Assembly: GCA_031459615.1 (NCBI GenBank)
Contig: JAVKIE010000001.1
Coordinates: 66,300-130,299, forward strand
DNA: 64,000 bases
Direction: 5' to 3'
Source of the DNA: Candidatus Calidihabitans tengchongensis
GTDB lineage: Bacteria; Sysuimicrobiota; Sysuimicrobiia; Sysuimicrobiales; Kaftiobacteriaceae
The notes under the pieces were generated by a model. That model was given only the letters and a program-made list of their open reading frames with translations, searched no databases and was not told where the DNA came from. Below are positions 4,641 to 19,552 of this stretch, piece after piece. The position numbers were made by a program, and so were the translations under genes. Each line of letters begins with the position of its first letter. Position 1 is the stretch's first letter.

Positions 4641-4656
4641 CGCGTGGGGCGACCGG

Positions 4657-5109
4657 TCAGCGTGTGGGCTCCTGCGCGTTCCCGGATCTGCGCCGCATCG
4701 ACCGGCGGACGTACGCCGCTGCCAGCGCCGTCCCCGCCAGCAGGGCCGCTGCAGGCGTCAGCCACACCACCCACAGGAGGCCCCGCCGCGGAGGCTCCAG
4801 CAGGATCCACGGGCCGTAGCGGTCCACGAAGTAGGCCACGATCTGCTCCTCACTCTCTCCCCGGGCCAGCCTGTCCCGGATCAGGGCCCGCATCTGGGCG
4901 GCCAGCTCGGACGGCGAGTCGGCCACGCTCTCGTTCTGGCACACCGGGCACCGCAGCCGCGCCGCGATCGCCTGCGCCCGCGCGTCCAGATCCTGGGCTC
5001 GCGCCATCCCGGAGACGACGCTGCCCAGGAGGGCGGCGATCGCGAGCGTCGTCTTCGCCCGAGCCGCCAGACCCCCGCTCCCGCGGCCTGCGATGGTCAT
5101 GCCTGACAC
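4657..5109 (-). CDS. ccmH: cytochrome c-type biogenesis protein CcmH
   Basis: Signal-peptide-like N-terminus followed by the LRCPVCQNESV (LRCxxC) CcmH motif. Last gene of the ccm cluster. Confidence 0.7.
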   Translation of the reverse strand: MSGMTIAGRGSGGLAARAKTTLAIAALLGSVVSGMARAQDLDARAQAIAARLRCPVCQNESVADSPSELAAQMRALIRDRLARGESEEQIVAYFVDRYGPWILLEPPRRGLLWVVWLTPAAALLAGTALAAAYVRRSMRRRSGNAQEPTR

Positions 5110-5137
5110 CTTCCTCCACCACCCCCCGCCCGCACCA

Positions 5138-5683
5138 TCACCGATCGCCGGGCCGGCCGGTGCCCGGGGGGCGGTGGTCGGAGGCGGGGATCAGCGGCTC
5201 GATGCGCGGGGCCAGCAGGTCCTCGGTCACCGCCCCCGCGTGCTTGAAGACGATCCGTCCCTGCCGGTCGATCACGTAGGTTTCGGGCACGCCGACCACG
5301 CCGAAGTCGATGGCGATGGCCCCCGAGCGGTCCATCCCCACGGGAAACGTCTGCCCGAAGCGGCGCAGGAAGGCCCGGGCTGCGGCCTCGGTGTCCTGGA
5401 TGTTGATGCCCACGACCACCACGCCCCGGTCCCGATAGCGCTCCCACACGCGCTGCAGGTGCGGGGCTTCGTCGTAGCAGGCGGGGTAGCACCAGGATGC
5501 CCAGAAGTTGACCACCACCACCCGCCCGCGCAGGTTCTGGGAGCGCAGCAGGCCTCCGTCGAACAGCGGCAGGGTGAATGCCGGGGCCGGACGCCCGACC
5601 AGGGGGGACGGCAGCCGCCGGGGATCGCGGCGCAGCCCCGCCCCCAGCACCGCCAGCAGGCCCACCACGACGGCCAGCGCCAC
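5138..5683 (-). CDS. ccmG: thiol:disulfide oxidoreductase CcmG/DsbE-like (thioredoxin fold), atypical CxxxC motif
   Basis: The C-terminal 181 aa of the long ORF 5138..7681 have a TM anchor then a thioredoxin fold (VVVVNFWASWCYPACYDEAPHL...GVPETYVIDRQGRI). Start at GTG 5681-5683 is a guess and could be further upstream. The redox motif reads C-Y-P-A-C (CxxxC), not the canonical CxxC. Confidence 0.65.
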   Translation of the reverse strand: MALAVVVGLLAVLGAGLRRDPRRLPSPLVGRPAPAFTLPLFDGGLLRSQNLRGRVVVVNFWASWCYPACYDEAPHLQRVWERYRDRGVVVVGINIQDTEAAARAFLRRFGQTFPVGMDRSGAIAIDFGVVGVPETYVIDRQGRIVFKHAGAVTEDLLAPRIEPLIPASDHRPPGTGRPGDR

Positions 5684-5748
5684 CCACGGCCACCGGATCC
5701 GCCGGGTCGGGGGCGACCCCGCCGGCCGGAGGTGTTCGTCGGGGCGCC

Positions 5749-7698
5749 CTACGGGCGGCGCGGCGGCCACAGGGCCAGTCCTCCCCCGACGATCATGATG
5801 GCCCCGCCGGCCCAGATCCACGACACCAGCGGGCTGATCACCACCCGCAGGACCACCGTCTGCGCGCCCGGGTCGAATCCCAGCAGTACCACGTACAGGT
5901 CCTCCCGCCAGGTGGACCGCACCCCGGGCGTCGGGACGGGGGTCCGGGCGTGGCGGTAGAAGTTCTGGGACGGCCGCAGGACCGCCGCCGGCGCCTGATC
6001 GCGGGAGGCGGCCAGGGCCGTGCCGCCGTCGGCCACCGACACCGGGGCCCACACCACCAGGCGGTCCGGATACGTTCCCGCCCGCAGCTCGTCCACCCGC
6101 AGGGCGTACGGCCCCACGCGGATCACCTCGCCCACCCGCAGCGCGCGGTGCACCTCCAGGCGAGCAGCCTGGGAGCCTACAATGCCCGCCACCACCACCG
6201 CCATCCCCAGATGGACCACGTATCCGGCGTAGCGGTGCCGGTGGCGGAGGACCAGCTCGGCCATCGCCGCCGGAACCGGCCGTCCGCCCCGGTGCAGGGC
6301 CCGCACGCCGCGGGCCAGCTCGTCCAGCTGGGCCAGGGCCACGAACGCCACCGCCCCCACCGCCACGACGGCGACGGGCGCCCGCAACCCGGCGGCCGCC
6401 GCGGCGGAAGCGGCGACGGCGGCGAGGCCGCCGGTTCGCGCCAGGCGGCGCAGGTCTGCGGGGGACGACCGTCCCCAGCGCAGGACGGTGCCGGCGCCCA
6501 TCAGGGCCAGCAGCACCAGCCCCAGGGGGGTGATCGCGCGATTGAAAAACGGCGGCCCCACGGTGACCTTCTGCCCGGTGGCCACGTCCACCGCCAGCGG
6601 GAACACCGTGCCCACAAACACCGTCGCGGCCATCGCCAGCAGGAGCGCGTTGTTGAAGACCATCAGGGCGTCGCGGGATGCCACCGACGCCACGCTCCCG
6701 GCGTCCCGCACGTCCGGCACCCGCCAGGCCAGCGCGGCGAGCGTCCCCACGGTGACGGCCGCCAGGCCGGCGAGCAGCGCGGGCCCGATCGCCGACTGGG
6801 TGAAGGCGTGCACCGAGGCCAGCACGCCGCTGCGGGTGACGAACGTGCCGAACAGCGTCAGCCAGAACGTCGCCGCAGCCAGGACCACCGTCCAGGCCCG
6901 CAGCACTCCCCGCCGGACCTGGGCCATCGCCGAGTGCACCAGCGCGGTGGCCGTGAGCCACGGCAGCAGGGCGGCGTTCTCCACCGGATCCCACGCCCAG
7001 TAGCCTCCCCATCCCAGGACGTCGTAGGACCACCGGGCCCCCAGGACCAGCCCGGCGGTCAGCGCCGTCCACGCGCCCAGCGTCCAGGGCCGGCTGACGA
7101 CCACCCAGTCTTCGGCATCCCGGCCCGCCAGCAGGGAGCCGAGGGCAAACGCATAGGGTACCGCCATCCCCACAAACCCCAGGTAGAGCAGGGGAGGGTG
7201 CAGGATCATCAGCGGGTGGTTCTGCAGCAGGGGGTTCAGTCCGGTGCCGTCGGCCGGTGGCGTCGGCACCCGCGCAAAGGGATCGGCCGGCCCCACCAGC
7301 AGGAGCAGGAAGAACGCGCACAGGCCCAGCAGCACGCCCACCGTCCCGCGCCACAGGCGGGGCGCTGGCGCGCGGGTGCGGACGGCCACTCCTGCGGTGA
7401 GGGCGGCCAGCAGCCAGGTCCACAGCAGCAGGGACCCTTCCAGCGCCCCCCACAGCGCCGCCACCCGGAACGCCAGCGGGGTGGTGCGGTTGGTGGTGGC
7501 GGCCACGTAGCGGATGCTGAAGTCCCCGCCGATCAGGGCCCACTCCAGGAGCGCCACCGCACCGGTGACCGCCACCGCCATGCCCGCCGCCAGCGGGACG
7601 ACCCGCCGCCCGCCCCGCGGCCGGGCGCACGCCGCCAGGCCGGCCACCGCACAGGCCGCCGCGGCCACCAGGCTGATCCATCCTCCCAGCGCGATCAC
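5749..7698 (-). CDS. ccmF: cytochrome c heme lyase subunit CcmF
   Basis: 649-aa polytopic membrane protein with the WGGYWAWDPVEN WWD-domain signature of CcmF/NrfE. Its ATG overlaps the ccmE stop (ATGA). Confidence 0.85.
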   Translation of the reverse strand: MIALGGWISLVAAAACAVAGLAACARPRGGRRVVPLAAGMAVAVTGAVALLEWALIGGDFSIRYVAATTNRTTPLAFRVAALWGALEGSLLLWTWLLAALTAGVAVRTRAPAPRLWRGTVGVLLGLCAFFLLLLVGPADPFARVPTPPADGTGLNPLLQNHPLMILHPPLLYLGFVGMAVPYAFALGSLLAGRDAEDWVVVSRPWTLGAWTALTAGLVLGARWSYDVLGWGGYWAWDPVENAALLPWLTATALVHSAMAQVRRGVLRAWTVVLAAATFWLTLFGTFVTRSGVLASVHAFTQSAIGPALLAGLAAVTVGTLAALAWRVPDVRDAGSVASVASRDALMVFNNALLLAMAATVFVGTVFPLAVDVATGQKVTVGPPFFNRAITPLGLVLLALMGAGTVLRWGRSSPADLRRLARTGGLAAVAASAAAAAGLRAPVAVVAVGAVAFVALAQLDELARGVRALHRGGRPVPAAMAELVLRHRHRYAGYVVHLGMAVVVAGIVGSQAARLEVHRALRVGEVIRVGPYALRVDELRAGTYPDRLVVWAPVSVADGGTALAASRDQAPAAVLRPSQNFYRHARTPVPTPGVRSTWREDLYVVLLGFDPGAQTVVLRVVISPLVSWIWAGGAIMIVGGGLALWPPRRP

Positions 7699-8084
7699 GG
7701 AGACGGGGGAGCGTACTGCTCCGAGTGCTTGACGATCACCGAGCGGGCCACGAAGACGCCGTCGGACCCGTAGATGCCCTCCACGACCGCCCCCTGGCCT
7801 TCGGTGAACAGGTCGGGGGGCACGCCCCGGTACAGGACCGGGACCGCGGCGCGGCCGTCGGTCAGCACGAAGCGCAGCTCCAGGGTTCGGGGATCAAACG
7901 ATCGCGACCCCGGCTGCACCTGGCCGCCCAGCCGCAGGGGCCGGCCCACCGCGTCCGGGCCCCGGTCCAGCAGCTCGCCGGGGGTGATGTAGTAGACCAC
8001 CGCCCCGCGGAGCCCTCCGATGACGAGGTAGACCAGGGCGCCGACCACCACCGCCGCCGCCAGCATCAGGCGCGCGCGCCTCAC
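7695..8084 (-). CDS. ccmE: heme chaperone CcmE
   Basis: TM anchor plus OB-fold region (VVYYITPGEL...RFVLTDG...VPVLYRGVPPDLF...GSDGVFVARSVIVKHSEQY). Chosen start is GTG 8082-8084 with GGAGGAG 5 nt upstream. The ORF track extends to an upstream ATG at 8192. Confidence 0.8.
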   Translation of the reverse strand: MRRARLMLAAAVVVGALVYLVIGGLRGAVVYYITPGELLDRGPDAVGRPLRLGGQVQPGSRSFDPRTLELRFVLTDGRAAVPVLYRGVPPDLFTEGQGAVVEGIYGSDGVFVARSVIVKHSEQYAPPSP

Positions 8085-8206
8085 CGCGTCTCCTCCCCCC
8101 TGCCGGGGCGGGTGCGGCGCAGCCGCCGGCGCAGGTGGACCACGTAGAGCACCACCGCCGCCGCCACCACGCCGTAGGCCAGGGCGATCCACACCGCCGG
8201 CGTCAT
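8081..8206 (-). CDS. ccmD: heme exporter protein CcmD (small membrane protein)
   Basis: 41 aa: MTPAVWIALAYGVVAAAVVLYVVHLRRRLRRTRPG, single TM plus a basic tail typical of CcmD. Its ATG overlaps the ccmC stop (ATGA) and its stop overlaps the ccmE GTG (GTGA). Confidence 0.5.
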   Translation of the reverse strand: MTPAVWIALAYGVVAAAVVLYVVHLRRRLRRTRPGRGEETR

Positions 8207-8856
8207 CCGGCCTCCTCGGACTCTTCCCGGCGCGCCACCCGCACGCGCAGGAGCAGCAGGTAGGCGAACAGGACGGTGAAGGCCAGCAGGCTCAGCAGCA
8301 GCGTCAGGAGCATCGGCGGCGCCAGGGCGACCTCTCCACGGGTGATGGACGGAGGCTGGTGCAGGGTCCGGAACCAGACCACCGAGTAGTGGATGAGGGG
8401 GACGTCTGCCGCCCCGAGGACGCCCACCACCGCGCCCAGCCGGGCTCCCCGCTGCGGATCGTCGGCCAGCGCCCGCACGAGCAGGGCGCTGCAGTAGATC
8501 AGGAACAGGACGGCCGTGGTGACCAGGCGCGCATCCCACGTCCACCACACCCCCCACACGGGGCGCCCCCAGATCGAGCCGGTGGCCAGCGTGAGGCCCG
8601 TGAACAGGACCGCCAGCTCGGTGGCGCTGCGGGTCAGGGCGTCATAGCGCGCCTCACGCCTCCACAGGTACAGGACCCCGCCGACCAGGGTGACGCCCAC
8701 CGCCAGGTACGCCACCCAGGCCGCGGGCACATGGACGTACATGATGCGGACGTAGTCGCCCTGAAAGGCGTCCGGCGGCGACGCCACCAGGCCCGCATAG
8801 GCCGCGGCGCCCAGCAGCAACACGGCCGCACCGCCCAGGACGGCAGACACCGTCAT
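8203..8856 (-). CDS. ccmC: heme exporter protein CcmC
   Basis: 217 aa with the WGRPVWGVWWTWDARL WWD motif and conserved His. ATGA overlap with the ccmB stop. Confidence 0.85.
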   Translation of the reverse strand: MTVSAVLGGAAVLLLGAAAYAGLVASPPDAFQGDYVRIMYVHVPAAWVAYLAVGVTLVGGVLYLWRREARYDALTRSATELAVLFTGLTLATGSIWGRPVWGVWWTWDARLVTTAVLFLIYCSALLVRALADDPQRGARLGAVVGVLGAADVPLIHYSVVWFRTLHQPPSITRGEVALAPPMLLTLLLSLLAFTVLFAYLLLLRVRVARREESEEAG

Positions 8857-9512
8857 ACCTCGTCCATCACCGCCTCAAACAGGATCGGACAGGCCAGCAC
8901 GAACACCGCGACGCTGCCGGCCAGCACCCCCGGCCACACGCCTGCCGGCGCGCCCGCCAGGACGGCCTCGGTGAGCCGGATGCAGGCCAGCACGGGCGGC
9001 AGGGCCAGGGGCAGCATCAGCAGGGGCGCCAGCAGCTCCCGCCCCCGCACGTGCAGCAGCAGTCCGGCCACCAGCGTTCCCAGGGCCGCCAGGGCGGCCA
9101 CGCCGGCCCCGCCCACCGCCGCCAGCTGCGGCAGGCGCGCGGCCACGGGGAGTCCGAACAGGAATGCAGCCAGGATCAGCAGGACGGCCACCACACCCCC
9201 CAGGAGGACCGCGAGCGCGGCGGCTTTGCCCCAGTACAGGTGCTCGCGCCGGCCCGGGTACAGCAGCAGCGCCTCCAGCGCCTGCTGGTCAGCCTCGGCC
9301 TGGGTGATCCGCGGGATGCCCACCGCCGCCGCGCACGCTGCCGACACCCACACCACGGCGGCGGCGCGGGCGGGTTCGGGCCCCAGCGCCACGCCCAGGA
9401 CCAGCACCAGCAGCAGGCCCGCCAGGAGCATGGTGAGGGCGACGGCTCGTCCTCGCCACTCCGCGCGCAGGTCCTTGCGGGCCACCGCCGCCGCCCGCGT
9501 CCACCCGCTCAC
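8853..9512 (-). CDS. ccmB: heme exporter ABC permease CcmB
   Basis: 219-aa six-TM protein (ARKDLRAEWR...). GTG start at 9510-9512 overlaps the ccmA stop (GTGA). The ORF track has a spurious 5' extension to 10004. Confidence 0.8.
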   Translation of the reverse strand: MSGWTRAAAVARKDLRAEWRGRAVALTMLLAGLLLVLVLGVALGPEPARAAAVVWVSAACAAAVGIPRITQAEADQQALEALLLYPGRREHLYWGKAAALAVLLGGVVAVLLILAAFLFGLPVAARLPQLAAVGGAGVAALAALGTLVAGLLLHVRGRELLAPLLMLPLALPPVLACIRLTEAVLAGAPAGVWPGVLAGSVAVFVLACPILFEAVMDEV

Positions 9513-10201
9513 GGGCGGCCTCCCTGCGCGGCGAACGCCGGCGCACCGGGGGCCAGGGATCGGAGCGCGGCGGGCTCCCCGGCCTGCAGCACCAGTTCCG
9601 CATCCGCCAGCGCCCGGGCGCGGTCGCGGTCGTGGGTGGCGATCACGGCACTGCCTCCCCGGGCGACGACCTCCGCCACCATGGCGGCGACCAGCGCGGC
9701 CCCCTCGGGATCCAGCCCGGCGTAGGGCTCGTCCAGCAGCAGCAGCCGCGGCTGGCCCAACCAGACCCGCGCCAGCGCCAGCCGGCGCTTCATGCCCTGG
9801 CTGAAGGTCCGGACGAGCCGGTCGGCGGCGGCACCCAGACCCACCCGGCGCAGCCAGGCGTCCACGTCCGTCTGCGGGCGCCCCCACAGGGCGGCTGCGA
9901 ACTCCAGATTCTCGCGGGCCGTGAGCAGCTCGTAACCGCCGAAGGCGGCGCCCACCAGCCCCACCATCGGGCGCACCCGGTCCGCCTGCCTGACCAGGTC
10001 GCATCCGAAGACGGTGCCCCCGCCCGCCGTGGGTCGCAGGGCGGTGGCCAGCAGGCGCAGCAGCGTCGTCTTGCCCGACCCGTTGGGACCGGAGACCAGC
10101 AGCACCCGGCCGGCAGGCACGGTCAGGGTGATGCGGCGCACGGCCCAGACCGGGCCGAACCGCCGTCCCAGGTTCACCGCGCGCACGGCCGGGACGTCCA
10201 C
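9509..10201 (-). CDS. ccmA: heme exporter ABC ATPase CcmA
   Basis: Walker A GPNGSGKTTLLR, signature FSQGMKRRLALA and Walker B LLLLDEP. Start is GTG 10199-10201. The ORF track extends spuriously to 11008 on the opposite strand of the cyt c gene. Confidence 0.8.
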   Translation of the reverse strand: MDVPAVRAVNLGRRFGPVWAVRRITLTVPAGRVLLVSGPNGSGKTTLLRLLATALRPTAGGGTVFGCDLVRQADRVRPMVGLVGAAFGGYELLTARENLEFAAALWGRPQTDVDAWLRRVGLGAAADRLVRTFSQGMKRRLALARVWLGQPRLLLLDEPYAGLDPEGAALVAAMVAEVVARGGSAVIATHDRDRARALADAELVLQAGEPAALRSLAPGAPAFAAQGGRP

Positions 10202-10366
10202 ACCCCTGCCCCCTCGTCCTCCTGTCTGTGTGCGGGAGGACACTCGCCGTGTCCAGTTCGCGCCCGGCGGCGCCGGCGCCTGCCGCTCCACCGCGCGACG
10301 GCGGAAGGCCACTTCGCCACGCCCCGGCAGGGACAGCGCGCGCGGTCGGAGAATTGTCCCGGGCGT

Positions 10367-11269
10367 ATGGGGGGTCGGATCGTCGCCGTCGCCATCGTCG
10401 TGGCCGGCGCTCTTTTTTTGGCCGGCTGCCAGCCCGCGGTGGACATCTCCCGGGCGGGCGTGGAGGCGGCGCGGGAGCTGCCCCCGGCGCCGCCGGATCG
10501 ACCCCTGCTGCCCGTGGACGCCCGGGGCCAGCCCATCCGTCCCTCGGCCGAGGTGGGCGCCCAGGTGTTCAGCCGGGCGCGGTGCGACGTCTGCCACGGC
10601 CCTCAGGGACGCGGCGACGGGCCCGCGGCGGCGGGTCTGCGGGCGGAGCAGAAGACGCTGCTGCACGACCTGGCCCGCCTGGTGGGGATCCGCCTGCAGC
10701 CCGAGCGGCTGCCCAGCCGCCCGGCCAACTTCCACAACGTGGTGGCGATGCGCCTGAACAGCCCGTTCAGCATGTACGAGACCGTCACCCGGGGGCGCCC
10801 GCACACGGCGATGCCGGCGTTCGGCCCGCGCCCGGCCTACGGCGCCACGTCCTTCGGCGTCCGGCTGACCGACGCGGAGCGCTGGCACGTGATCTTCTTC
10901 GAGTGGGCGTTCGCCACCACGCCCGAGGAGGTGGCGCGGGGACGCGAGCTGTACGAGACGCGGGCCATCGAGGTGGGCGGGCGCGCCCTGACCTGCGCGT
11001 CCTGCCACGGGGTGCGGGGGGACGGCCGGGGGCCGGAGGGCGTGCGGCTGAGCCAGCGGCTGTGGACGTGGGCCCGGGGACAGGGCCCGGGGATCTTCAC
11101 CGACTTCAACCTGATGGCCCAGCGCAAGCCCAGCGACCTGTTCCAGGCGGTCGTGGACGGACGGGGAGAGATGCCCGCCTACCGGGGGAAGCTCACCGAG
11201 GACGAGATCTGGGCCCTCGTGAACTACATCTATACGTTCGTCTACGACTATCCGGGGCTGCGCCGGTAG
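10367..11269 (+). CDS. diheme c-type cytochrome, lipoprotein
   Basis: Lipobox signal MGGRIVAVAIVVAGALFLAGC. Two CxxCH heme-binding sites (CDVCH, CASCH). ATG at 10367 sits in-frame inside the larger ORF 9632..11269. Confidence 0.75.
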   Translation: MGGRIVAVAIVVAGALFLAGCQPAVDISRAGVEAARELPPAPPDRPLLPVDARGQPIRPSAEVGAQVFSRARCDVCHGPQGRGDGPAAAGLRAEQKTLLHDLARLVGIRLQPERLPSRPANFHNVVAMRLNSPFSMYETVTRGRPHTAMPAFGPRPAYGATSFGVRLTDAERWHVIFFEWAFATTPEEVARGRELYETRAIEVGGRALTCASCHGVRGDGRGPEGVRLSQRLWTWARGQGPGIFTDFNLMAQRKPSDLFQAVVDGRGEMPAYRGKLTEDEIWALVNYIYTFVYDYPGLRR

Positions 11270-11368
11270 CGCGCCCTCCCGTCCGTCGGGCCACAGCGTA
11301 TGGTGCCCGGGCGGTGCGCGCGCGGGTGCGTGCTATAGTGATGGGGTCACAACGGGTGGGATGATCGT

Positions 11369-12061
11369 ATGGAGAACCCGCCGACGCGGATGATGGAGCG
11401 GCGCCGGTTCCTGCGCCTGGCGACCACCGTTCCGGCGCTGGCCGCCCTGGCCGGGCTGGTGTCGCCGCTGCTGCGGCTGCTCAAGCCCAACGTGGACAAG
11501 TTCCGCATCTACGCCCCCACGGCGCACGACACCCCCCAGGGCGAGGCCATCGTGGCGGCCACCCTGTCGGAGGTCGCCCGCCCCTGGGACTTCAAGTACT
11601 TCGTGTTCACCCAGAAGTATCCCCAGTACACGCCCCAGGGATTCAAAGCCGCCGTCGTGCCGGGGGTGGTGGTCCGCCTGCCGCGGAAGATCCGTCTGTA
11701 CGATCCGGCCACCGGCCGCGGCCCTCTGGCGTGGGCCCGGGACATCGGCAAGACCCCCCGGGTCACCGACAGCGACCTGGTGGTGTTTTCCCGGATCTGC
11801 CCGCACCTGGGCTGCATCTTCAACTACGTCCCCGACTACCGGGAGATCACCGCCGGCTACGGCGGCTACGTGCCGCCCCCCGAGCGCCGGCACGCCCTGA
11901 TGGGGTGTCCCTGCCACCTGAGCATCTACGACCCGGCCGACCCGCAGGTCCCGGGGAGGGTCCTCTCGGGTCCGGCGCCGCGCCCCCCGCGCACGTTTCT
12001 GTTTGAGGTGCGGGGCGGGGACATCGTCATCACCGACGTGGAGCCGGGGGGAATCGCCTGA
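11369..12061 (+). CDS. Rieske [2Fe-2S] iron-sulfur protein of a cytochrome bc-type complex (Tat signal)
   Basis: Twin-arginine motif ERRRFLRLA. Rieske boxes CPHLGC and CPCHLS, with disulfide cysteines. Confidence 0.85.
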   Translation: MENPPTRMMERRRFLRLATTVPALAALAGLVSPLLRLLKPNVDKFRIYAPTAHDTPQGEAIVAATLSEVARPWDFKYFVFTQKYPQYTPQGFKAAVVPGVVVRLPRKIRLYDPATGRGPLAWARDIGKTPRVTDSDLVVFSRICPHLGCIFNYVPDYREITAGYGGYVPPPERRHALMGCPCHLSIYDPADPQVPGRVLSGPAPRPPRTFLFEVRGGDIVITDVEPGGIA

Positions 12062-12070
12062 GGTCTGACC

Positions 12071-13231
12071 ATGTGGGAGACGGTGCGCGACTGGCTGCGA
12101 GAGCGCCGGGAGAAACTGGACCTGTTCGACGAGACCCTGGTGGCCCGGCAGGGCAATCCCTTCTACCTCCTGGGGCCCATGCTGTACTACTTCTGGCTCA
12201 TCACCGTCGTCACCGGGGTCGTCCTGATGCTGTGGTACGAGCCCACCACCACGGGCGCCTACAGCTCCATCGAGCGCATTCAGAACGAGATCGGCCGCAC
12301 CGGCCTGACCGTGTTCGGGCGCCCGGTGGTCCTGGGCGGGCTGATCCGCGGCCTGCACAAGTACGGCGCCGACGCCCTCATCACCGTCATCTTCCTGCGC
12401 CTGTACCGCATGTACTTCCTGGGAGAGTACAAGAAGCCGGGCGAGCTGTCGTGGATGCTGGCCTTTGCCGGATTGATCCTGGCCATGATCTCCGGGATCA
12501 CCGGCTACCTGCTCATCTGGAACCAGCGGGCCTTCTGGGCCGCCAAGGTAGTCCTGACGGTCCCGGTGTACTTCGACGAGATCCCGGTCCTGGGCCAGTT
12601 GAAGTTCGGCTCGATGATCGCCTACCTGTTCCTGGGCGGGCCGGCCATCGGCCAGGCCACCATCACCCGGTTTTACGCCATCCACTTCGGCATCTCCCTG
12701 GTCCTGCTGGTCCTGGTGGAGGTGCTGTTCTTCCGCACCCGCCGCAAGCGCATCAACATGTCGCTGACGCCCCTGGCGGTGTTCCTGGTCATGCTGGTGG
12801 TCATCTCCCTCCTCCTGCCAGCCGAAAGCGGCCGGCGGGCCGATCCCACGCGGACGCCCCTGCCCATCCTGTCGGACTGGTACTTCCTGGCCCTGTACCA
12901 GTACGTGAAGTATACGCCGCCGTTGTGGGCGGGGCTGGGCCCCGGGCTGCTCATCGGCTTCGGCATGCTGGTGCCCTTTCTGGACCGCAGCCGGGGCCGC
13001 CGGCCCCTGGAGCGGCCGTTCTTCTTCGTGGTGGGCGTGCTGGCGCTCACCTACTTCCTGGTGTTCACGGCGCTGATCCTGTTCAACATCGCGGTGATCG
13101 AGCGGGATCCGTTCATCATCATGCTGGTGACGCTGGCGGTTCTGAGCCTGGGCCTGGCGTGGGAGATCCGGTACCGCCGCCGCCGGGCGGCGGCCCCCGC
13201 TGCGCCAGCCCGGGCGCCCGCCCGCGGGTAG
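12071..13231 (+). CDS. cytochrome b-like membrane subunit (fused b6 + subunit IV length) retaining only the heme bL histidine pair
   Basis: N-terminus and Qo-region align with cytochrome b (GYLLIWNQRAFWAAKVV..., TRFYAIHFG, SDWY in place of PEWY). In the helix B motif LHKYGADALITVIFLR the second His is Arg. In the helix D motif IHFGISLVLLVLVEVL the second His is absent. Only 2 His occur in the first 300 aa. Confidence 0.8.
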   Translation: MWETVRDWLRERREKLDLFDETLVARQGNPFYLLGPMLYYFWLITVVTGVVLMLWYEPTTTGAYSSIERIQNEIGRTGLTVFGRPVVLGGLIRGLHKYGADALITVIFLRLYRMYFLGEYKKPGELSWMLAFAGLILAMISGITGYLLIWNQRAFWAAKVVLTVPVYFDEIPVLGQLKFGSMIAYLFLGGPAIGQATITRFYAIHFGISLVLLVLVEVLFFRTRRKRINMSLTPLAVFLVMLVVISLLLPAESGRRADPTRTPLPILSDWYFLALYQYVKYTPPLWAGLGPGLLIGFGMLVPFLDRSRGRRPLERPFFFVVGVLALTYFLVFTALILFNIAVIERDPFIIMLVTLAVLSLGLAWEIRYRRRRAAAPAAPARAPARG

Positions 13232-13235
13232 GCCG

Positions 13236-13481
13236 ATGCGGCTGCTGTCCATCGCGGTGGCGTTCGTGGCGGCCCTGGCGGCCCTGTCGGCGGGGTGGGC
13301 GGCGGTGCAGGCGGCGTGGGCCGCCCCCACCCCGGGCGCCCTGGCCCGGGTGGCGGGGTACGCGCTGGTCTTCGCGGCGGCGTTTCTGTACCTGGGGTTC
13401 TGGGTGTACGCGGCGGACCGCGCGGCGGGCAGGGTCCGCCGGCGCATCGGCCTGTATGAGCGCTTCCTGGCCGGCCGGTAG
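13236..13481 (+). CDS. small hydrophobic membrane protein (81 aa)
   Basis: ORF starts 5 nt after the cyt b-like stop. Two predicted TM helices. No recognisable motif. Confidence 0.35.
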   Translation: MRLLSIAVAFVAALAALSAGWAAVQAAWAAPTPGALARVAGYALVFAAAFLYLGFWVYAADRAAGRVRRRIGLYERFLAGR

Positions 13482-13540
13482 GACCCCGGTGGGAGCCCCT
13501 GGCGTCGGGGAGGGATGGGCGTGAATGCGGAGGGGACGGG

Positions 13541-13741
13541 ATGCGGAACGCGCATCTGACCGGCATCATCGCCCTCAGCGCCGTGGCCGTGGCGGCCGCG
13601 GCCGGCATCGTCTACGGGGAAGCCACCGACCGGTGGTACCTGGGCGGCGCCCTGGTGGGCGTGCTGCTGATCGCGTACGCGGGCATCGTGCTGCTGCTGC
13701 GTCGGATGGGCCTGATCGGGCCCCGGAGGGCTGAGCGGTGA
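13541..13741 (+). CDS. small membrane protein (66 aa)
   Basis: Two TM helices. Its stop overlaps the GTG of the downstream cyt b-ferredoxin gene (GTGA), suggesting co-translation within the same module. Confidence 0.35.
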   Translation: MRNAHLTGIIALSAVAVAAAAGIVYGEATDRWYLGGALVGVLLIAYAGIVLLLRRMGLIGPRRAER

Positions 13742-14931
13742 GCGTCGCGGACGTGCGGCCCAGCCGCTACGGGCGGGTGATGACCGCGCTGTTGCGGGCC
13801 ACCCTGCGGGTGGACACGTGGATCCACCGGATCGTGCCCACCGACTACAACCCGCTGTACTACACCGGCGGCCTGGCCAACCTCTTCCTGCTGGTCCTGG
13901 TCCTCTCGGGTATCTTCCTGTTCTTCTACTACGAGGCCAGCCTGGAGGGCGCGTTCGCCTCGGTGCGCTACCTGACCCAGGCGGTCCCCTACGGGGGGCT
14001 GCTGCGGGGGGTGCACCGCTACGCCGCCGACGCCTTCGTGGTGGCCATCCTGCTGCACCTGTTCCGCAACTGGTTCACCGACCGCTACCTGTTCTCCCGG
14101 GATAACCCGTGGATCTCGGGGATGATCCTGCTGCTGTTCGGGGGCTTCATCGGGGTCACCGGCTACCAGCTGGTGTGGGATGAGCGGGCCCAGGTCCTGA
14201 CCGCGCTGTTCGCGCGCCTGCTGCGCAGCATCCCCGGGGTGGGCGGCGCGCTGGCCGAGCTGTTCTTGGGGGGGCGCGGGGTCAGCGATGCCACCCTGGT
14301 GCGGATGCTGTTCCTGCACATCGGGCCCGCCTCGGCCCTGTACCTGCTGCTGTGGTGGCACTACCTGCGGCTGCGCCACCCCAAGATCTGGCCGCCGGCG
14401 ATGTGGGTGCTGTTCTGCGTGGGGCTGGTCTTCCTGCTGGCGGGCCTGATTCCCGTGGGCGCCGAGGCCATCCCGCCGGCGGCGCCGGCCGCGCGGCCCA
14501 CCCGGTTCGCCCTGGATGTCTTCTTCCTGTGGCCGTTCTGGCTGCTGAACTGGCTGCCGCCCCGCGGGGTCGTGGCCCTGGGGGTGGTCCTGTTCACCGC
14601 CGGCCTGGCCATCCCGTACCTCAGCCGGCGAGAGCACCCCGCGGCCATGGGGGTGCGCCACGCCGGCGTGGCCCAGGTGATCGACGGCAACTGCACCGGA
14701 TGCGAGCTGTGCTACTACGACTGTCCCTACAACGCCATCGTCATGGTGCCGTCTCCCGCCCCGGGGCTGACCAAGGCGGCGGCGAACCGCACCCTGCTGG
14801 CGGTGGTGGTGGAGTCCCGGTGCGTGGAATGCGGGATCTGCATCGGCGCGTGCCCCTTTGAGGCGCTGGAGCTGCCCCGGCTCCTGGAGCGGGACGTGCT
14901 GGCGCAGGTGGCGGAGGCGGTGTCGGCATGA
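13738..14931 (+). CDS. cytochrome b (both bis-His heme sites intact) fused to a C-terminal 2x[4Fe-4S] ferredoxin domain
   Basis: Helix B motif VHRYAADAFVVAILLH and helix D motif LHIGPASALYLLLWWH both keep the H-x13-H spacing. C-terminal CTGCELCYYDCP and CVECGICIGACP are two classic 4Fe-4S ferredoxin motifs. Confidence 0.75.
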   Translation: MSVADVRPSRYGRVMTALLRATLRVDTWIHRIVPTDYNPLYYTGGLANLFLLVLVLSGIFLFFYYEASLEGAFASVRYLTQAVPYGGLLRGVHRYAADAFVVAILLHLFRNWFTDRYLFSRDNPWISGMILLLFGGFIGVTGYQLVWDERAQVLTALFARLLRSIPGVGGALAELFLGGRGVSDATLVRMLFLHIGPASALYLLLWWHYLRLRHPKIWPPAMWVLFCVGLVFLLAGLIPVGAEAIPPAAPAARPTRFALDVFFLWPFWLLNWLPPRGVVALGVVLFTAGLAIPYLSRREHPAAMGVRHAGVAQVIDGNCTGCELCYYDCPYNAIVMVPSPAPGLTKAAANRTLLAVVVESRCVECGICIGACPFEALELPRLLERDVLAQVAEAVSA

Positions 14932-15377
14932 GCGAGCCCCGGATCGTGGGGTTTGTGTGCGACTGGAGCGTGGACCTCCGGCCCCTGGTGGACGGCGGCC
15001 GGCTGCGGGATCTGCCCGGGGTGCGGATCATCCGCGTCCCCTGCTCGGGTTTCGTGCGCCCCGCGTGGCTGGAGGAGGCCCTCGTCCGGGGCGCCGCCGG
15101 CGCCTTCGTCACCGGGTGTCCGTACGGGGACTGCCTGAACCGCGAGGGCAACTTCCTGATGCGGGATCGGATCGACCAGCTGCAGCGCCGGCTGCAGCGC
15201 CGCAAGATCGACCCCGCCCGGGTGGCCATGCTGGCCCACGGGCTGCACGACGGGCGGGCGTTCCTGGAGGCGGTGCGCGCCTTCGCGGACCGGGTGGCCG
15301 CGCTGCCGGCTCCGGCCCGGCCGGGCCGCCCGGCGGTGGCGCAACCGGCCGGCGCGCCGGAGGGGGAGGGGACGTGA
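14928..15377 (+). CDS. MvhD/FlpD-like protein (methyl-viologen-reducing hydrogenase delta subunit family, [2Fe-2S])
   Basis: IVGFVCDWSVD...RIIRVPCSGFV...GAFVTGCPYGDCLNREGN matches the FlpD/MvhD cysteine pattern (C-x-W-C/S...PCSG...GC..G.C). ATGA overlap with the upstream cyt b-Fd fusion. Confidence 0.6.
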   Translation: MSEPRIVGFVCDWSVDLRPLVDGGRLRDLPGVRIIRVPCSGFVRPAWLEEALVRGAAGAFVTGCPYGDCLNREGNFLMRDRIDQLQRRLQRRKIDPARVAMLAHGLHDGRAFLEAVRAFADRVAALPAPARPGRPAVAQPAGAPEGEGT

Positions 15378-15481
15378 GCCGGGCGCCGCTGCGGGTGCAC
15401 CTGCTGTACCTGTTGTTCTACCTGTTCTGGTTCCTGCTGCTGACGTTCATCGCGTCCTTCGGGCTGGTGGCCGAGGCGTAG
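15374..15481 (+). CDS. 35-aa single-TM peptide, translationally coupled to the MvhD-like gene
   Basis: GTG overlaps the MvhD-like TGA (GTGA). Sequence VSRAPLRVHLLYLLFYLFWFLLLTFIASFGLVAEA is reminiscent of the small PetG/L/N-type subunits of Rieske/cyt b complexes. Confidence 0.3.
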   Translation: MSRAPLRVHLLYLLFYLFWFLLLTFIASFGLVAEA

Positions 15482-15598
15482 GCCGCCCTCGGGTGGCCCG
15501 GGATTCCGGCGGCGCTGCTGGCGGTGGCGGAGTCCCTCTGCTATTCTGGTGACGGTTTTCCGCACGCCAGAGTCCGTGTCCAGACAAGGAGGGAGCGC

Positions 15599-15976
15599 AT
15601 GGGCAGGAGGATGGGGCGGTGGGCGGTGCTGGCCGGCGTGGCGGTGATCGTCGCGGGCTGCGGGGGCGGTGGTCCCCGGGGCGGGCAGCCGGCGGCGCCG
15701 GCGGAGGGAGCCATCACCGTCACCGAGACCGAGTGGGCCATCCGGTTTCCCGGCACCCCCCTCAAGGCCGGGAAGGCCACCCTGGTCATCAGGAACGAGG
15801 GCACCATCGAGCACAACTTCGTCATCCAGGGGCTGGGCGTGGAAGTGGACGCCATCCCCCCCGGCGGGTCCCGGCAGGTGACCGTGGACCTGCGGCCGGG
15901 GACGTATGAGGTGGTCTGCAACCTCCCCGGCCACCTGGAGGCCGGCATGAAGACGACCATCACCGTCGCTCCCTGA
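15599..15976 (+). CDS. type-1 copper (cupredoxin/plastocyanin-like) lipoprotein
   Basis: Lipobox VIVAGCGG. Copper ligand pattern H(NF)...C(NLPG)H...M. AAGGAGGG RBS 5 nt before ATG 15599. The ORF track starts at 15524. Confidence 0.75.
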   Translation: MGRRMGRWAVLAGVAVIVAGCGGGGPRGGQPAAPAEGAITVTETEWAIRFPGTPLKAGKATLVIRNEGTIEHNFVIQGLGVEVDAIPPGGSRQVTVDLRPGTYEVVCNLPGHLEAGMKTTITVAP

Positions 15977-16011
15977 CGAGCCCGTCGCCCCGCCGCGAGA
16001 GGGCGGGCGCC

Positions 16012-16980
16012 ATGGATCTGTCGGCCATCTACGCCCCGGTCCGGGACGACCTGGACAGCCTGCAGCGGTTGCTGGAACAGGAGCTGCAGGCCGACGATCC
16101 CTTCATCGGGGACCTGGTGCGCCACGTGCTGAGCACCCGGGGCAAGATGATCCGCCCCGCCCTGGTCTGTCTGTCCGCCCAGGCCAGCGGCGGAGCCGGA
16201 GAGGCGCGCCTGTGGCTGGCGGCGGCGGTGGAGCTCATCCACATCGCCTCGTTGATCCACGACGATGTCATCGACGACGCCGCCGTGCGCCGGGGGGTGG
16301 CGACCGTCAACGTGCAGTGGGGCAACCAGATCGCCGTGCTGCTGGGGGATTACCTGTTCAGCAAGGCCTTCCACCTGCTCAGCCGCATCCGCCATCCCGA
16401 CGTGGCCCCCACGCTGGCCGTGGCCACGGTGCGCATGAGCCAGGCGGAGATCCTGCAGGTCAAGTACGGCCACGAGCCCCACGACGACGAAGGCGTGTAC
16501 TTCCAGATCATCGCCGGCAAGACGGCACACCTGTTCGCGGCGGCCTGCCGGGCGGGAGGGTTGCTGGCCGGCAACCGTCCCGCCGCGGAGCGGCTGGGCA
16601 TGTTCGGCCTGCACTGGGGCATGGCCTTCCAGATTACCGACGACACCCTGGATCTCACCGGGCGGGAGGCGGCCCTGGGCAAACCGGTCTACAGCGACAT
16701 CCAGACCGGGAAGGTGACCCTCCCCCTCATCCGCACCCTCCGGCAGGCCACCCCCCAGGACCGGGATCACCTGCTGCGCCTGCTGCACGGTCCCCTGGGA
16801 GACGGGGCCCGGGAGGACGTCCGGCGGCTGTTGCAGCGCTACGGCGGCATCGAGTACGCCCTGGACGTGGCCGGCCGGTACTCCCGCCAGGCGGCTCAGG
16901 CCCTGGCCCCGCTGCCTCCCGGTCCGGCCAAAGAGAGCCTGCTGGCCCTCACCGAGTTCGTCGTGGTGAGGTCGCACTGA
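16012..16980 (+). CDS. all-trans polyprenyl diphosphate synthase (hepta/octaprenyl-type, quinone side chain)
   Basis: First and second aspartate-rich motifs LIHDDVIDD and ITDDTLD. Overall IspB/HepT-like. Confidence 0.85.
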   Translation: MDLSAIYAPVRDDLDSLQRLLEQELQADDPFIGDLVRHVLSTRGKMIRPALVCLSAQASGGAGEARLWLAAAVELIHIASLIHDDVIDDAAVRRGVATVNVQWGNQIAVLLGDYLFSKAFHLLSRIRHPDVAPTLAVATVRMSQAEILQVKYGHEPHDDEGVYFQIIAGKTAHLFAAACRAGGLLAGNRPAAERLGMFGLHWGMAFQITDDTLDLTGREAALGKPVYSDIQTGKVTLPLIRTLRQATPQDRDHLLRLLHGPLGDGAREDVRRLLQRYGGIEYALDVAGRYSRQAAQALAPLPPGPAKESLLALTEFVVVRSH

Positions 16981-16986
16981 CCCGCG

Positions 16987-18021
16987 ATGTCCGCTCAGCC
17001 CCACGCCGCGGGTCCGGTGGCGGTCACCGGCGCCACGGGATTCGTGGGCATGCACGTGGTCCGGGGCCTGCATGACGCGGGGGTACCGGTGCGGGCGGTG
17101 GTGCGGCCCGGCACCCGCCGGGTGGAGCGGGTGGCGACCCTGCGCCGGTGGGGATGCGAGGTGGCGGAGGCCGACGTGGGCGACCTGGCGGCGCTGGAGC
17201 GGGCCCTGGCCGGTTGCCGCGCCGTCGTGCACCTGGTGGCCATCATCCGGGAGCGGGTAGGCGCCACCTTCGACCTGATCAACCGGCGCGGCGTGCGGGA
17301 GGTGGCGGCGGCGGCGCGGGCGGGAGGCGTGGGGCGGGTGGTGCACCTGAGCGCGCTGGGCGCCGGCCCCCGGGCCCCGCGCTACCTGCAGTCCAAGTGG
17401 GCGGGGGAGGAGGAGCTGCGCCGCAGCGGCATCCCGTGGGTCATCTTCCGCCCGTCGTTCATCATCGGTCCCGGGGGAGGGGCTGCCCGCCAGTTCGCGG
17501 CGGTCGTCCGCCTGGGCGCCTGGTATCCTTTGTGGCTGCTGGGGGTGCCATTCCGGCCGCTGGCGGCGCTGGCATCGGTCACCCCGGCGGTGCCGGTCCT
17601 GGGATCGGGCCAGTACCGGTCGATGCCCGTGGACGTGCGGGATGTGGTGGACCTGGTGGGGCGGGCGCTGGACCACCCCGCGGCGGTCGGGCAGACCTTC
17701 GACGTGGTGGGGCCGGACACACTGACCTACGATGCGATCCTGGACGAGGTGATGAGCGCGCTGGGGGTGCGGCGGTGGAAGGTCCACATCCCCCTGCGGG
17801 CTGCCCGGGCCCTGGTGCGGGAGATGGCCCGCCTCCCCTCTCCGCCCATCACGCCGGACGAATTCGAGGCGCTGATCCTCGACAACGTCGGCGATCCGGG
17901 TCCGGTGCAGCGCGTGTTCGGCCTCACCCCGCGTCCGTTCCGCGAGGCCATCCAGTTCGCGCTTGCGGGCGATGCGGAACACCCGCCTGACGGCGGGACA
18001 GGAGGCTCCCGTGGACCGTGA
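16987..18021 (+). CDS. NAD(P)-binding SDR-family protein (NAD-dependent epimerase/dehydratase / NmrA-like)
   Basis: GATGFVGMHVV Rossmann motif and YxxxK-type region (YLQSKWAGE). Confidence 0.7.
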   Translation: MSAQPHAAGPVAVTGATGFVGMHVVRGLHDAGVPVRAVVRPGTRRVERVATLRRWGCEVAEADVGDLAALERALAGCRAVVHLVAIIRERVGATFDLINRRGVREVAAAARAGGVGRVVHLSALGAGPRAPRYLQSKWAGEEELRRSGIPWVIFRPSFIIGPGGGAARQFAAVVRLGAWYPLWLLGVPFRPLAALASVTPAVPVLGSGQYRSMPVDVRDVVDLVGRALDHPAAVGQTFDVVGPDTLTYDAILDEVMSALGVRRWKVHIPLRAARALVREMARLPSPPITPDEFEALILDNVGDPGPVQRVFGLTPRPFREAIQFALAGDAEHPPDGGTGGSRGP

Positions 18022-18615: not shown

Positions 18616-18801
18616 ATGCCCAACATCGGGTGGACGGAGCTGATCGTCATCCTGGTGATCGCGCTGCTCGTGTTCGGTCCCTCCCGGCTGGCCGGCATCG
18701 GCGGCGCGCTGGGGAAGGCGATCCGCGAGTTCCGCAGCGCGGTCCGGGACGCCGAGAACGAGATCGACCGGGCGACGGCATCCGACAAGAAGAACACCTG
18801 A
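18616..18801 (+). CDS. tatA: twin-arginine translocase subunit TatA/E
   Basis: MPNIGWTELIVILVIALLVFGPSRL has the conserved FGP hinge. [11 protein letters not shown]. Confidence 0.85.
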   Translation: MPNIGWTELIVILVIALLVFGPSRLAGIGGALGKAIREFRSAVRDAENEIDRATASDKKNT

Positions 18802-18820
18802 GCGGCGGTGAGGAGTCGGC

Positions 18821-19552
18821 GTGGAAGACCGCCCGATGACCATCGTCGAGCACCTGGAGGAGCTGCGCCTGCGGCTCCTCATTTCCCTGGCCGCGTTTGC
18901 CGCCGCCACGGGACTCAGCCTGTTGTTTGTCGAGCGCATCCTGGCCATTCTGATCCGGCCCGTCGGGCGCGTGGTGTTCCTGGCTCCCACCGAGGCGTTC
19001 TTCGTCCGCCTGAAAGTGGCCGCGCTGTCGGGGGCCTTCCTCAGCCTGCCGGTGGTGCTGTACCAGCTGTGGCGGTTTGTCTCGGTGGGGCTGACGCCCA
19101 CCGAGCGGCGGTACGCCCTGGGGCTGCTGCCGCCGGCCCTGGGACTGTTTGTCGCCGGGGCGGCGTTCGCGTTCTGGGTGATCCTGCCGGTGGGCGTGCG
19201 GTTTCTGCTCAGCTACCAGACCGAGTCCCTGGTGCCGATGATCTCGGTGGGCGCCTACACCTCCTTTGCCACCGCCTTCGTCCTGGCGTTCGGCGTCCTG
19301 TTCGAGCTGCCGGTCGTCATCCTGTTCCTGGCCCGCCTGGGCGTGGTGACCCCCGCGGCGCTGGCGGCCGGCCGCCGCTACGCCCTGCTGGCCATCGTCG
19401 TGGCCTCGGCGGCGCTGACCCCCGGGGGGGATGTGGCCTCCCAGCTGCTGATGGCCCTGCCCACGTACCTGCTCTACGAGGTCAGCATATGGGTGGCCCG
19501 GGTGTTCGCCCCCCGCCCGGCGCCCCGGGAGTCGTTGAGTCCCGGGCGATAG
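18821..19552 (+). CDS. tatC: twin-arginine translocase subunit TatC
   Basis: HLEELRLRL... six-TM TatC signature. Confidence 0.85.
   Translation: MEDRPMTIVEHLEELRLRLLISLAAFAAATGLSLLFVERILAILIRPVGRVVFLAPTEAFFVRLKVAALSGAFLSLPVVLYQLWRFVSVGLTPTERRYALGLLPPALGLFVAGAAFAFWVILPVGVRFLLSYQTESLVPMISVGAYTSFATAFVLAFGVLFELPVVILFLARLGVVTPAALAAGRRYALLAIVVASAALTPGGDVASQLLMALPTYLLYEVSIWVARVFAPRPAPRESLSPGR

Follow-up and report, generated by a model that had tools for sequence, protein, structure and literature searches.

A Rieske/cytochrome b operon of Candidatus Sysuimicrobiota that pairs a heme bL-only cytochrome b with a cytochrome b-ferredoxin fusion

Introduction

Where can the second electron of a quinol go when the cytochrome b that oxidizes it has no ligands for heme bH? 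This question is raised by an operon of nine genes at positions 10367 to 15976 of a 64-kb window (the whole stretch of DNA analyzed here) from a metagenome-assembled genome (MAG) of Candidatus Calidihabitans tengchongensis, a member of Candidatus Sysuimicrobiota (CSP1-3); all hosts of the operon are uncultured. It encodes a diheme c-type cytochrome, a Rieske protein, a first cytochrome b (cyt b1), two small transmembrane proteins (tm1 and tm2), a second cytochrome b fused to a ferredoxin domain (cyt b2-Fd), an MvhD/FlpD-type [2Fe-2S] protein (FlpD), a 35-aa hydrophobic peptide, and a cupredoxin. An earlier note on this sequence had described nine co-directional, mostly coupled genes, and we found all nine on the + strand at the positions given below. 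The genes overlap by 4 bases at three junctions (tm2/cyt b2, cyt b2/FlpD, and FlpD/35-aa peptide), and two further junctions are gaps of 9 and 4 bases.

The two cytochromes b are complementary: cyt b1 has the motifs of a quinol oxidation (Qo) site without heme bH, and cyt b2 has all four heme-ligating histidines with a degenerate Qo site. On the evidence of sequence and gene order, we consider it likely that the membrane core of the complex is a heterodimer of these two different cytochromes b, in which the second quinol electron probably has to cross from one subunit to the other. That electron may then leave through a wire of iron-sulfur (FeS) clusters instead of following the normal Q cycle. 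We put the probability of this reading, a forward bifurcation with the FeS wire as the outward exit for the low-potential electron, at roughly 45%, and we weigh it against its alternatives where the relevant evidence appears.

Cytochrome b1 has Qo motifs and heme bL ligands only

Cyt b1 (386 aa; 12071..13231, + strand) is an eight-helix protein that matches Cytochrome_B (PF00033; E = 3.4e-27) and Cytochrom_B_C (E = 1.5e-6). We mapped its heme ligands with a HMMER alignment to cytochrome b6 of Mastigocladus laminosus (1VF5_A). The histidines that bind heme bp in that structure, the equivalent of bL (His86 and His187), align with H96 and H205 of cyt b1, and those that bind heme bn, the equivalent of bH (His100 and His202), align with R110 and F220. 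All 58 orthologues examined have H96, R110, and H205, and at position 220 they have F, Y, or V. The alignment and the orthologues together confirm what the earlier note had claimed, that the first cytochrome b has the bL histidines only. The possibility that heme bH is kept by means of a shifted histidine could be ruled out, as there is no histidine within ±3 positions in the window protein. Heme cn could also be ruled out: the position of Cys35 is not cysteine in any member (cyt b1 has Leu there, and cyt b2 has Tyr).

The Qo motif LSDWYFL and the cd1-helix motif WNQRAFWAAK of cyt b1 are both invariant in 58 of 58 orthologues. The AlphaFold2 (AF2) model of the protein (mean confidence, pLDDT, 94.5) has eight transmembrane (TM) helices and matches bc1 cytochrome b with a Foldseek TM score of ~0.7. 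A working Qo site combined with heme bL alone means that cyt b1 has no exit for the second electron within its own subunit, unless it is paired with cyt b2.

Two charged residues stand where heme bH would have been bound, R110 (window 12398-12400), at the former ligand position of helix B, and E217 (window 12719-12721) on helix D. An invariant Arg and a conserved Glu at these positions recur over the ~25 distant clusters described below, which suggests that the two residues form a buried salt bridge filling the lost bH pocket. In the AF2 model, the p-side loop that joins helix A to helix B contains a beta-hairpin, GRTGLTVFGRPVVLG (cyt b1 residues 76-87; window 12296-12331), an insertion that is absent from several orthologues and thus specific to a clade.

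Cytochrome b2 is fused to a ferredoxin domain and followed by FlpD

The product of the sixth gene, cyt b2-Fd (397 aa; 13738..14931, + strand), is a six-helix diheme cytochrome b followed by two CxxCxxCxxxCP motifs. The fusion to a 2x[4Fe-4S] ferredoxin domain proposed in the earlier note is supported by matches to Cytochrome_B (PF00033; E = 1e-29) and to the Fer4 and dicluster families of Pfam. Its four histidines (H93, H107, H194, and H208, which form H-x13-H twice) and eight cysteines are all invariant, also in relatives at ~35% identity. The cd1 motif (WDERAQVL) and ef motif (LDVFF) are those of a degenerate Qo site. The AF2 model (pLDDT 82.7) consists of six TM helices, A to F, then a flexible linker, then a ferredoxin fold. 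Because the number of predicted TM helices ahead of it is even, the ferredoxin domain should lie on the same side as the N terminus, which is the cytoplasmic (n) side, by heme bH. In Foldseek searches, both cytochrome b models matched complex III cytochromes b in the PDB (TM scores 0.55-0.72), and no solved chain among these matches covers the ferredoxin extension of cyt b2.

With both cytochromes b described, we asked whether the operon might encode an ordinary qcrABC/bc complex whose odd features are artefacts of alignment or annotation. Both proteins find their best scores in the cytochrome b6 and cytochrome b families, though short of the curated cut-offs, and their folds resemble that of complex III cytochrome b; the Rieske boxes, the bc-type fold, and, in cyt b1 only, the Qo and cd1 motifs of the bc1/b6f superfamily are all there. 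However, the four histidines expected in every cytochrome b are complete in cyt b2 and incomplete in cyt b1, whose substitutions were read residue by residue against a solved b6 and hold without exception in 58 orthologues. Moreover, the Fer4 and FlpD domains pass their Pfam thresholds, as the earlier note would have them do, and neither cytochrome b reaches any NCBIfam equivalog cut-off. Among the cut-offs not reached are those of NF040969/NF040970, the ExtP/ExtQ selenite/tellurite cytochromes b (121.6 and 129.5 bits versus 290; for ExtQ, 18.9 versus 150). An ordinary bc complex therefore seems hardly credible here.

The gene that follows cyt b2-Fd encodes FlpD (14928..15377, + strand), which scores 91.9 bits against PF02662 (cut-off 22.3; E = 3.9e-26) and has conserved cysteines at C11, C39, C64, and C69. 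The earlier note had drawn a parallel with the FeS carriers of Hdr/Mvh electron-bifurcating systems. The FlpD fold (PF02662) speaks for this kinship, but no hdr or mvh gene that could represent the HdrA/Mvh-type hydrogenase association of FlpD lies in the window, and a published gene table lists mvhA in only a few MAGs of the phylum. The FlpD gene was thus rejected as a marker of an Mvh/Hdr system, and what is left of the analogy is the fold itself.

The operon is conserved in Sysuimicrobiota as the only complex III

Relatives of the operon were collected in a scan of one genome per species, and the counts of gene order and presence that follow are over 67 Sysuimicrobiota loci unless a flank is specified. 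They include Ca. Fervidifonticultor, Sysuimicrobium, Tepidifontimicrobium, Thermofontivivens, and "ANGP1," and an identical locus also occurs in MAGs labelled "Armatimonadota bacterium." The gene set that the earlier note had proposed to survey does co-occur in related genomes: where the upstream flank is long enough, the full colinear order cyt c-Rieske-cyt b1-tm1-tm2-cyt b2Fd-FlpD is present in 42 of 43 loci, and the remaining locus lacks only a detectable tm2. Among the 55 loci with downstream flank, FlpD is present in all, the 35-aa peptide in 49, and the cupredoxin in 23, and this last protein may be an optional carrier toward the terminal oxidase.

Two small transmembrane proteins stand between the two cytochromes b, tm1 (81 aa; 13236..13481, + strand) and tm2 (66 aa; 13541..13741, + strand). 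Both are probable accessory subunits; their positions are kept in 68 loci (tblastn) and 66 loci, respectively, and neither has a family match in Pfam or NCBIfam searches. The 35-aa peptide (15374..15481, + strand; GTG start) is a single-helix hydrophobic protein and a probable small subunit, and it was called as a gene in an independent annotation of a related locus (L093). Even these small proteins of the operon carry invariant residues across related loci.

In the gene table for the phylum, K00412 (cytochrome b) is listed in two copies in 44 of 45 MAGs, no other cytochrome b or Rieske orthologue is listed, and one to three cox sets and ccoN are present (PMC11604079 supplement). Given two K00412 copies and no other cytochrome b orthologue, the operon is the phylum's only complex III. 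It is also transcribed in Sysuimicrobiota, with metatranscriptome values for K00412 of up to ~936, comparable to coxA (PMC11604079 supplement). The main text of the two papers on the phylum makes no mention of complex III.

The same supplement shows that most Sysuimicrobiota MAGs have a single nuoE, nuoF, and nuoG, together with doubled nuoB, H, I, K, L, and M and ndh-annotated genes (PMC11604079). Doubling of the membrane and connecting subunits without doubling of nuoE/F/G points to a second complex I that lacks the NADH module. Such a NuoEFG-less complex I is a possible sink for ferredoxin-level electrons.

Cytochromes b with bL ligands only are accompanied by cytochrome b-ferredoxin in other lineages

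We then looked beyond the phylum with a HMMER pass of cyt b1 over 1.8 billion cluster representatives (clusters at 50% identity). About 25 clusters share the cyt b1 pattern, having Arg (once Lys) at the helix-B bH position, the motif (S/P)DWYF, and a conserved Glu two or three residues ahead of the helix-D bH position. The helix-D histidine is still kept in seven clusters, all of them distant relatives with Arg or Lys on helix B. The canonical four histidines are present in 111 of the best 150 cyt b1 matches.

We examined genomic context for six bL-only cytochrome b lineages. One locus (L068) has a cbb3-type oxidase, a Rieske protein, a cyt b1-like protein, cyt b-Fd, FlpD, and a cytochrome c, in that order. 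Another (L095) runs from a cbb3-type oxidase through a diheme cytochrome c, a Rieske-like protein, a cyt b1-like protein, and two small open reading frames (ORFs) to cyt b-Fd and FlpD, and a third (L096) opens in the same way before its contig ends. In L092, the cyt b1-like gene is directly followed by cyt b-Fd. The Caldisericia version (L090/L091; L090 positions 946-8471) encodes a Rieske protein, cyt b-Fd, FlpD, two FeS proteins, a PyrK/HydG-type FAD/NAD(P) [2Fe-2S] flavoprotein, a cyt b1-like protein, and two small ORFs. The sixth (L088/L089) begins within the same flavoprotein gene as L090 and continues with a cyt b1-like gene and two small ORFs. The Caldisericia cluster contains no cytochrome c gene, and its cyt b1-like protein has a ~300-residue N-terminal extension; Caldisericia are normally regarded as anaerobes.

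Gene order thus varies, and yet wherever context suffices the bL-only cytochrome b is always found with cyt b-Fd and FlpD. In the six lineages and in Sysuimicrobiota, we found no bL-only cytochrome b without cyt b-Fd wherever the contig reached far enough; L088/L089 and L096 stop before the position at which cyt b-Fd would be expected. The converse fails, as cyt b-Fd-FlpD occurs without a bL-only partner. A family that joins all three parts in a single polypeptide has 2486 matches and goes by the NCBI name "hydrogenase iron-sulfur subunit." These triple fusions are found in MAGs of Deltaproteobacteria/Thermodesulfobacteriota, Nitrospinae, and Nitrospirota, with no Rieske protein nearby, and related ones are present in the cultured, genetically tractable Magnetospirillum magneticum AMB-1. 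Cyt b2-Fd is 33-37% identical to the cyt b-4Fe-4S-MvhD fusions over its full length, and the four histidines and eight cysteines are common to both.

This one-way dependence bears on the possibility that the operon encodes two separate enzymes, namely a Rieske/cyt b1/cyt c quinol oxidizer that does not use a Q cycle and whose heme bL is either structural or a dead end, and an independent cyt b2-Fd/FlpD membrane oxidoreductase. The many Deltaproteobacteria, Nitrospinae, and Nitrospirota that have cyt b-Fd-FlpD alone, with no Rieske protein nearby (also PMC4122944), agree with such a split, as do a cytochrome b of Pyrobaculum that lacks one bH ligand and the cyanobacterial subfamily K, which also lacks a bH ligand, both with no partner described. 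However, in none of the six lineages sampled was the bL-only protein seen to lack a neighboring cyt b-Fd, and the genes are translationally coupled. Invariant bL ligands and an invariant Qo motif would also be unexpected for a site that does not bifurcate, and the second electron would have no exit. We consider two separate enzymes quite unlikely. Instead, the distribution of Qo site and bH between the two proteins (the layout of cross-inactivated bc1 mutants, discussed below), their translational coupling, and the one-way dependence together lead us to infer the b1:b2 heterodimer.

The triple fusions also imply contact between the ferredoxin domain and FlpD. The fusion genes at the loci L070 (7953-9488), L085 (9001-10599), and L087 (5556-7673 and 9001-11112) in every case adjoin heme-copper oxidase genes (COX2-like, COX1, and SCO1). 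In L087, the two paralogous fusions flank a NuoF-like NADH-binding subunit, and a cytochrome d1 gene, a second COX1, and a CbbQ/NorQ gene are nearby. The fusions look like an uncharacterized oxidase-linked (or nitric oxide reductase-linked) transmembrane electron module. Taken together, the triple fusions, the Caldisericia flavoprotein, and the NuoF-like neighbor argue that the FeS chain is real and that some lineages, at least, have a pyridine-nucleotide-linked flavoprotein at its end.

A proposed path for the two electrons

The high-potential side of the complex begins with the Rieske protein (11369..12061, + strand), which has a twin-arginine (Tat) signal/anchor with the motif RRRF, the boxes CPHLGC and CPCHLSIY, and a match to TIGR01416 (E = 4.8e-11). 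Its Pfam Rieske score of 17.6 bits falls under the cut-off of 20.3; none of 53 orthologues departs from either box or from the Ser that follows box II. Box II is of the CPCHxSxY type, and this Ser/Tyr pair is a mark of high-potential Rieske proteins. A Rieske protein of this type acting on a low-potential quinone would drive the bL branch very negative. The same potential argument has been made for anammox Rieske proteins, with measured potentials above +300 mV (PMC12954380).

The diheme c-type cytochrome (10367..11269, + strand) is a lipoprotein with two CxxCH motifs, the lipobox LAGC, and two stretches each matching PF13442 (Cytochrome_CBB3) and PF00034 (Cytochrom_C). The cupredoxin (~15599..15976, + strand), a type-1 copper lipoprotein that matches Cupredoxin_1 (PF13473; E = 2.5e-8) and PF00127, has His, Cys, His, and Met ligands that are invariant among orthologues. 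An ATG at 15599 or 15611, just ahead of the lipobox, is a likelier start for it than the GTG at 15524.

In the path that we propose, menaquinol (the presumed quinone) would be oxidized at the Qo site of cyt b1, the sole working Qo site of the complex, whose subunit would carry heme bL only and whose bH pocket would be occupied by the invariant Arg of helix B and the conserved Glu of helix D. The first electron would pass to the Rieske protein, the diheme cytochrome c, the blue-copper protein where present, and the terminal oxidases. The second would move from bL of cyt b1 to bL of cyt b2 across the dimer interface and on to bH; every bc1 or b6f dimer solved so far has its bL hemes within electron-transfer distance of each other. 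Cyt b2 would hold both hemes, with the two [4Fe-4S] clusters on its cytoplasmic face next to bH, where FlpD would dock. Leaving bH, the electron would run through both [4Fe-4S] clusters and that of FlpD into the cytoplasm, where its acceptor would most likely be an NAD(P)+-reducing flavoprotein or a carrier at ferredoxin level. The earlier note had suggested an FeS wire that either diverts or receives low-potential electrons. The idea of a wire fits the topology, the fusions, and the Caldisericia flavoprotein, and its use as an outward exit has the probability stated at the outset.

Several points weigh against this reading. The Sysuimicrobiota operon contains no flavoprotein or other acceptor in the window, in L093, or in L094. 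Sending half of the quinol electrons to the cytoplasm from the only complex III of an aerobe would require a high-capacity recycling route, and only a high Rieske potential and favorably poised pools would make reduction of NAD(P)+ against the membrane potential more than energetically marginal. In the heme-copper oxidase contexts described above, moreover, the cyt b-Fd-FlpD module more plausibly carries electrons outwards. A self-contained Q cycle would also be simpler for the only complex III of an aerobic phylum.

That last point favors a cross-dimer Q cycle, in which electrons would pass from the Qo site of cyt b1 to a quinone reduction (Qi) site at bH of cyt b2, and Fd and FlpD would supply electrons from the cytoplasm, with ferredoxin, NAD(P)H, or a hydrogenase as their source. 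This resembles the ferredoxin input to cytochrome b6f that has long been proposed for cyclic electron flow. The n-side residues D26, R211, R213, H214, and K216 of cyt b2 are invariant within the phylum, as a Qi site might require, and in heme-copper oxidase contexts cyt b-Fd-FlpD with a NuoF-like partner and no Rieske protein is most simply an inward-to-outward conduit. On the other hand, only R211 and P220 of the candidate Qi residues stay invariant in the wider cyt b-Fd family, the heme cn cysteine is absent, and a cross-dimer Q cycle leaves unexplained why cyt b1 lost bH and Qi instead of both subunits keeping them. The presence of FlpD in 55 of 55 loci further argues that it has a core and not an auxiliary role. 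We judge the cross-dimer Q cycle, the strongest of the alternatives, possible and on the whole unlikely.

The direction of flow could also be reversed throughout, so that the enzyme is a confurcating quinone reductase. Menaquinone would then be reduced at Qo by a low-potential cytoplasmic electron, coming through FlpD, the FeS clusters, and the b hemes, jointly with a cytochrome c electron that arrives via the Rieske protein. Outward transport through the module is possible in its oxidase-linked relatives, and the Caldisericia version combines an NAD(P)-binding flavoprotein with a cluster devoid of a cytochrome c gene, as this idea would have it. In Sysuimicrobiota, L068, L095, and L096, however, the sets sit with cytochrome c, cupredoxin, or cbb3-type oxidase genes, and as the sole route from quinol to cytochrome c oxidase the complex must run forward for aerobic respiration. 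A reversed enzyme is very unlikely.

Forward bifurcation with an FeS exit can be taken one step further. The complex could be a natural, obligate heterodimer that acts as an "open" quinone-based electron bifurcase, in which the second electron would never return to Qi; by way of bL, bL, bH, and three FeS clusters it would instead reach cytoplasmic carriers at the level of ferredoxin or NAD(P)H, and this in an aerobic organism. We regard this fuller version as doubtful. If it were true, (micro)aerobic chemolithoautotrophs would obtain low-potential reductant straight from the quinol pool without reverse complex I, and the enzyme might feed the NuoEFG-less complex I, the two jointly forming a longer proton-pumping loop than the Q cycle.

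Comparison with known systems

Canonical bc1, b6f, Bacillus b6c, and actinobacterial bcc complexes share with this operon the Rieske protein, the bc-type fold, and the (P/S)DWY Qo motif; like it, they include a c-type cytochrome and belong to the aerobic chain. They differ in being homodimers of one cytochrome b with four invariant histidines and a Qi site, whereas here these features are split over two paralogues and FeS proteins are added.

Diheme membrane cytochromes b wired to cytoplasmic [4Fe-4S] clusters are also known from modules of the QmoABC, HdrDE, and DsrMK type, which connect the quinone pool with the cytoplasm and include an MvhD-like domain in QmoB. In those modules, of which Qmo is a quinone-linked example (PMC3333476), the cytochrome b is of the NarI/HdrE type, there is no Rieske protein, and no Qo bifurcation has been proposed, in contrast to the bc-type (PF00033) proteins described here.

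Of the systems described so far, the nearest are the anammox Rieske/cytochrome b complexes of Kuenenia stuttgartiensis (Kuste4569-4574 and Kustd1480-1485), which likewise combine Rieske/cytochrome b with a cytoplasmic FeS chain on the n side (PMC12954380). That chain has been proposed to pass the low-potential electron of quinol bifurcation to NAD(P)+, and a high-potential-type Rieske protein is present in a menaquinone organism, like the type inferred here (PMC12954380). The Caldisericia relative carries an FAD/NAD(P) flavoprotein, as the anammox complexes do, and the Sysuimicrobiota operon does not. Models of the anammox complexes show homodimers built from canonical b6 and subunit IV, which contain hemes bP, bN, and cN, and a further heme b has been proposed; their cytochromes c are hexa- or octaheme proteins, and FAD is carried by a single large subunit with several clusters (PMC12954380). 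The operon described here has, by contrast, two different cytochromes b, no heme cN cysteine, a diheme cytochrome c, a ferredoxin domain fused to cytochrome b, a separate MvhD/FlpD protein, and no flavoprotein.

The division of labor between the two cytochromes b has its counterpart in the engineered cross-inactivated bc1 complexes of the Osyczka and Daldal laboratories, which have the same layout, with a Qo site without bH in one monomer and a dead Qo site with an intact upper branch in the other. These enzymes support photoheterotrophic growth via a bL-to-bL bridge (PMC4152375; PMC4330944). They are, however, laboratory mutants of a homodimer that end at a normal Qi site, while here the asymmetry is natural, encoded by two genes across phyla, with an upper branch that leads into FeS clusters.

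Cytochromes b fused to 4Fe-4S and MvhD domains were noted in 2014 by Kao and Hunte as an uncharacterized "PDWF-FeS" clade with no Rieske protein nearby, and no bL-only partner cytochrome b was described (PMC4122944). This clade is probably also "subfamily H" of Dibrova et al. 2017. Its members are single polypeptides without a Rieske protein, often beside heme-copper oxidase genes, whereas in the present operon FlpD is a separate gene and a Rieske protein is present. Since the survey of Kao and Hunte dropped every cytochrome b lacking any of the four histidines (PMC4122944), a bL-only family would have been filtered out.

In the open-access literature, we found no description of a Rieske complex that joins a bL-only cytochrome b, a cytochrome b-ferredoxin, and FlpD, or of the heterodimer logic. 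The earlier note's statement that the combination is not a described complex thus holds for the combination as a whole; the low-potential FeS exit, however, had already been proposed for anammox, and the fusions had been noted in 2014.

Electron crossing from bL to bL in complex III has been debated for decades, and engineered asymmetric mutants have so far been the only means of testing it. Here a natural enzyme appears to rely on this crossing, one that whole phyla have conserved and that its hosts have as their sole complex III; if confirmed, it would be direct evidence of a "bus bar" that cells can use. The complex would also be a second, structurally simpler case of the anammox idea that Qo bifurcation can be tapped for low-potential cytoplasmic reductant, which matters for the question of where aerobic lithoautotrophs get their NAD(P)H or reduced ferredoxin. 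Annotation pipelines call the related fusions "hydrogenase iron-sulfur subunit," and the triple fusions of M. magneticum AMB-1 offer a route to experiments.

Genomic neighborhood

The operon lies beside a ccm operon, as previously described: ccmA-B-C-D-E-F, a thioredoxin-like gene, and ccmH occupy 4657..10201 on the - strand, upstream of and divergent from it (Pfam matches on an identical contig, L001), and ccm genes flank the operon in L093 and L094 too. Directly downstream is a polyprenyl diphosphate synthase for the quinone side chain (16012..16980, + strand; PF00348), likewise in L093 and L094. An NmrA/epimerase-like NAD(P)-binding protein (16987-18021) follows, with tatA/tatC (18616-19552) just downstream of it. 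Genes for Tat export, c-heme attachment, and the quinone side chain therefore cluster with a complex that needs all three.

No hdrA, mvh, nuo, or quinone-ring biosynthesis genes are present in the window, the rest of which is housekeeping in character (mreBCD, PBP2, rodA, RNase G, L21/L27, leucyl-tRNA synthetase, and an ECF sigma factor). A scan of positions 9400-16400, which says little in DNA with a G+C content of ~73% (the value for the whole window), found no promoter-like sites, and terminator-like matches were at chance level. Finally, a 526-aa ORF without a Pfam match (window 2871-4451) adjoins the ccm genes. The equivalent position holds a 527-aa protein in L094 and a 534-aa protein in L093, and the similar lengths suggest that this may be a conserved unknown tied to cytochrome c maturation.

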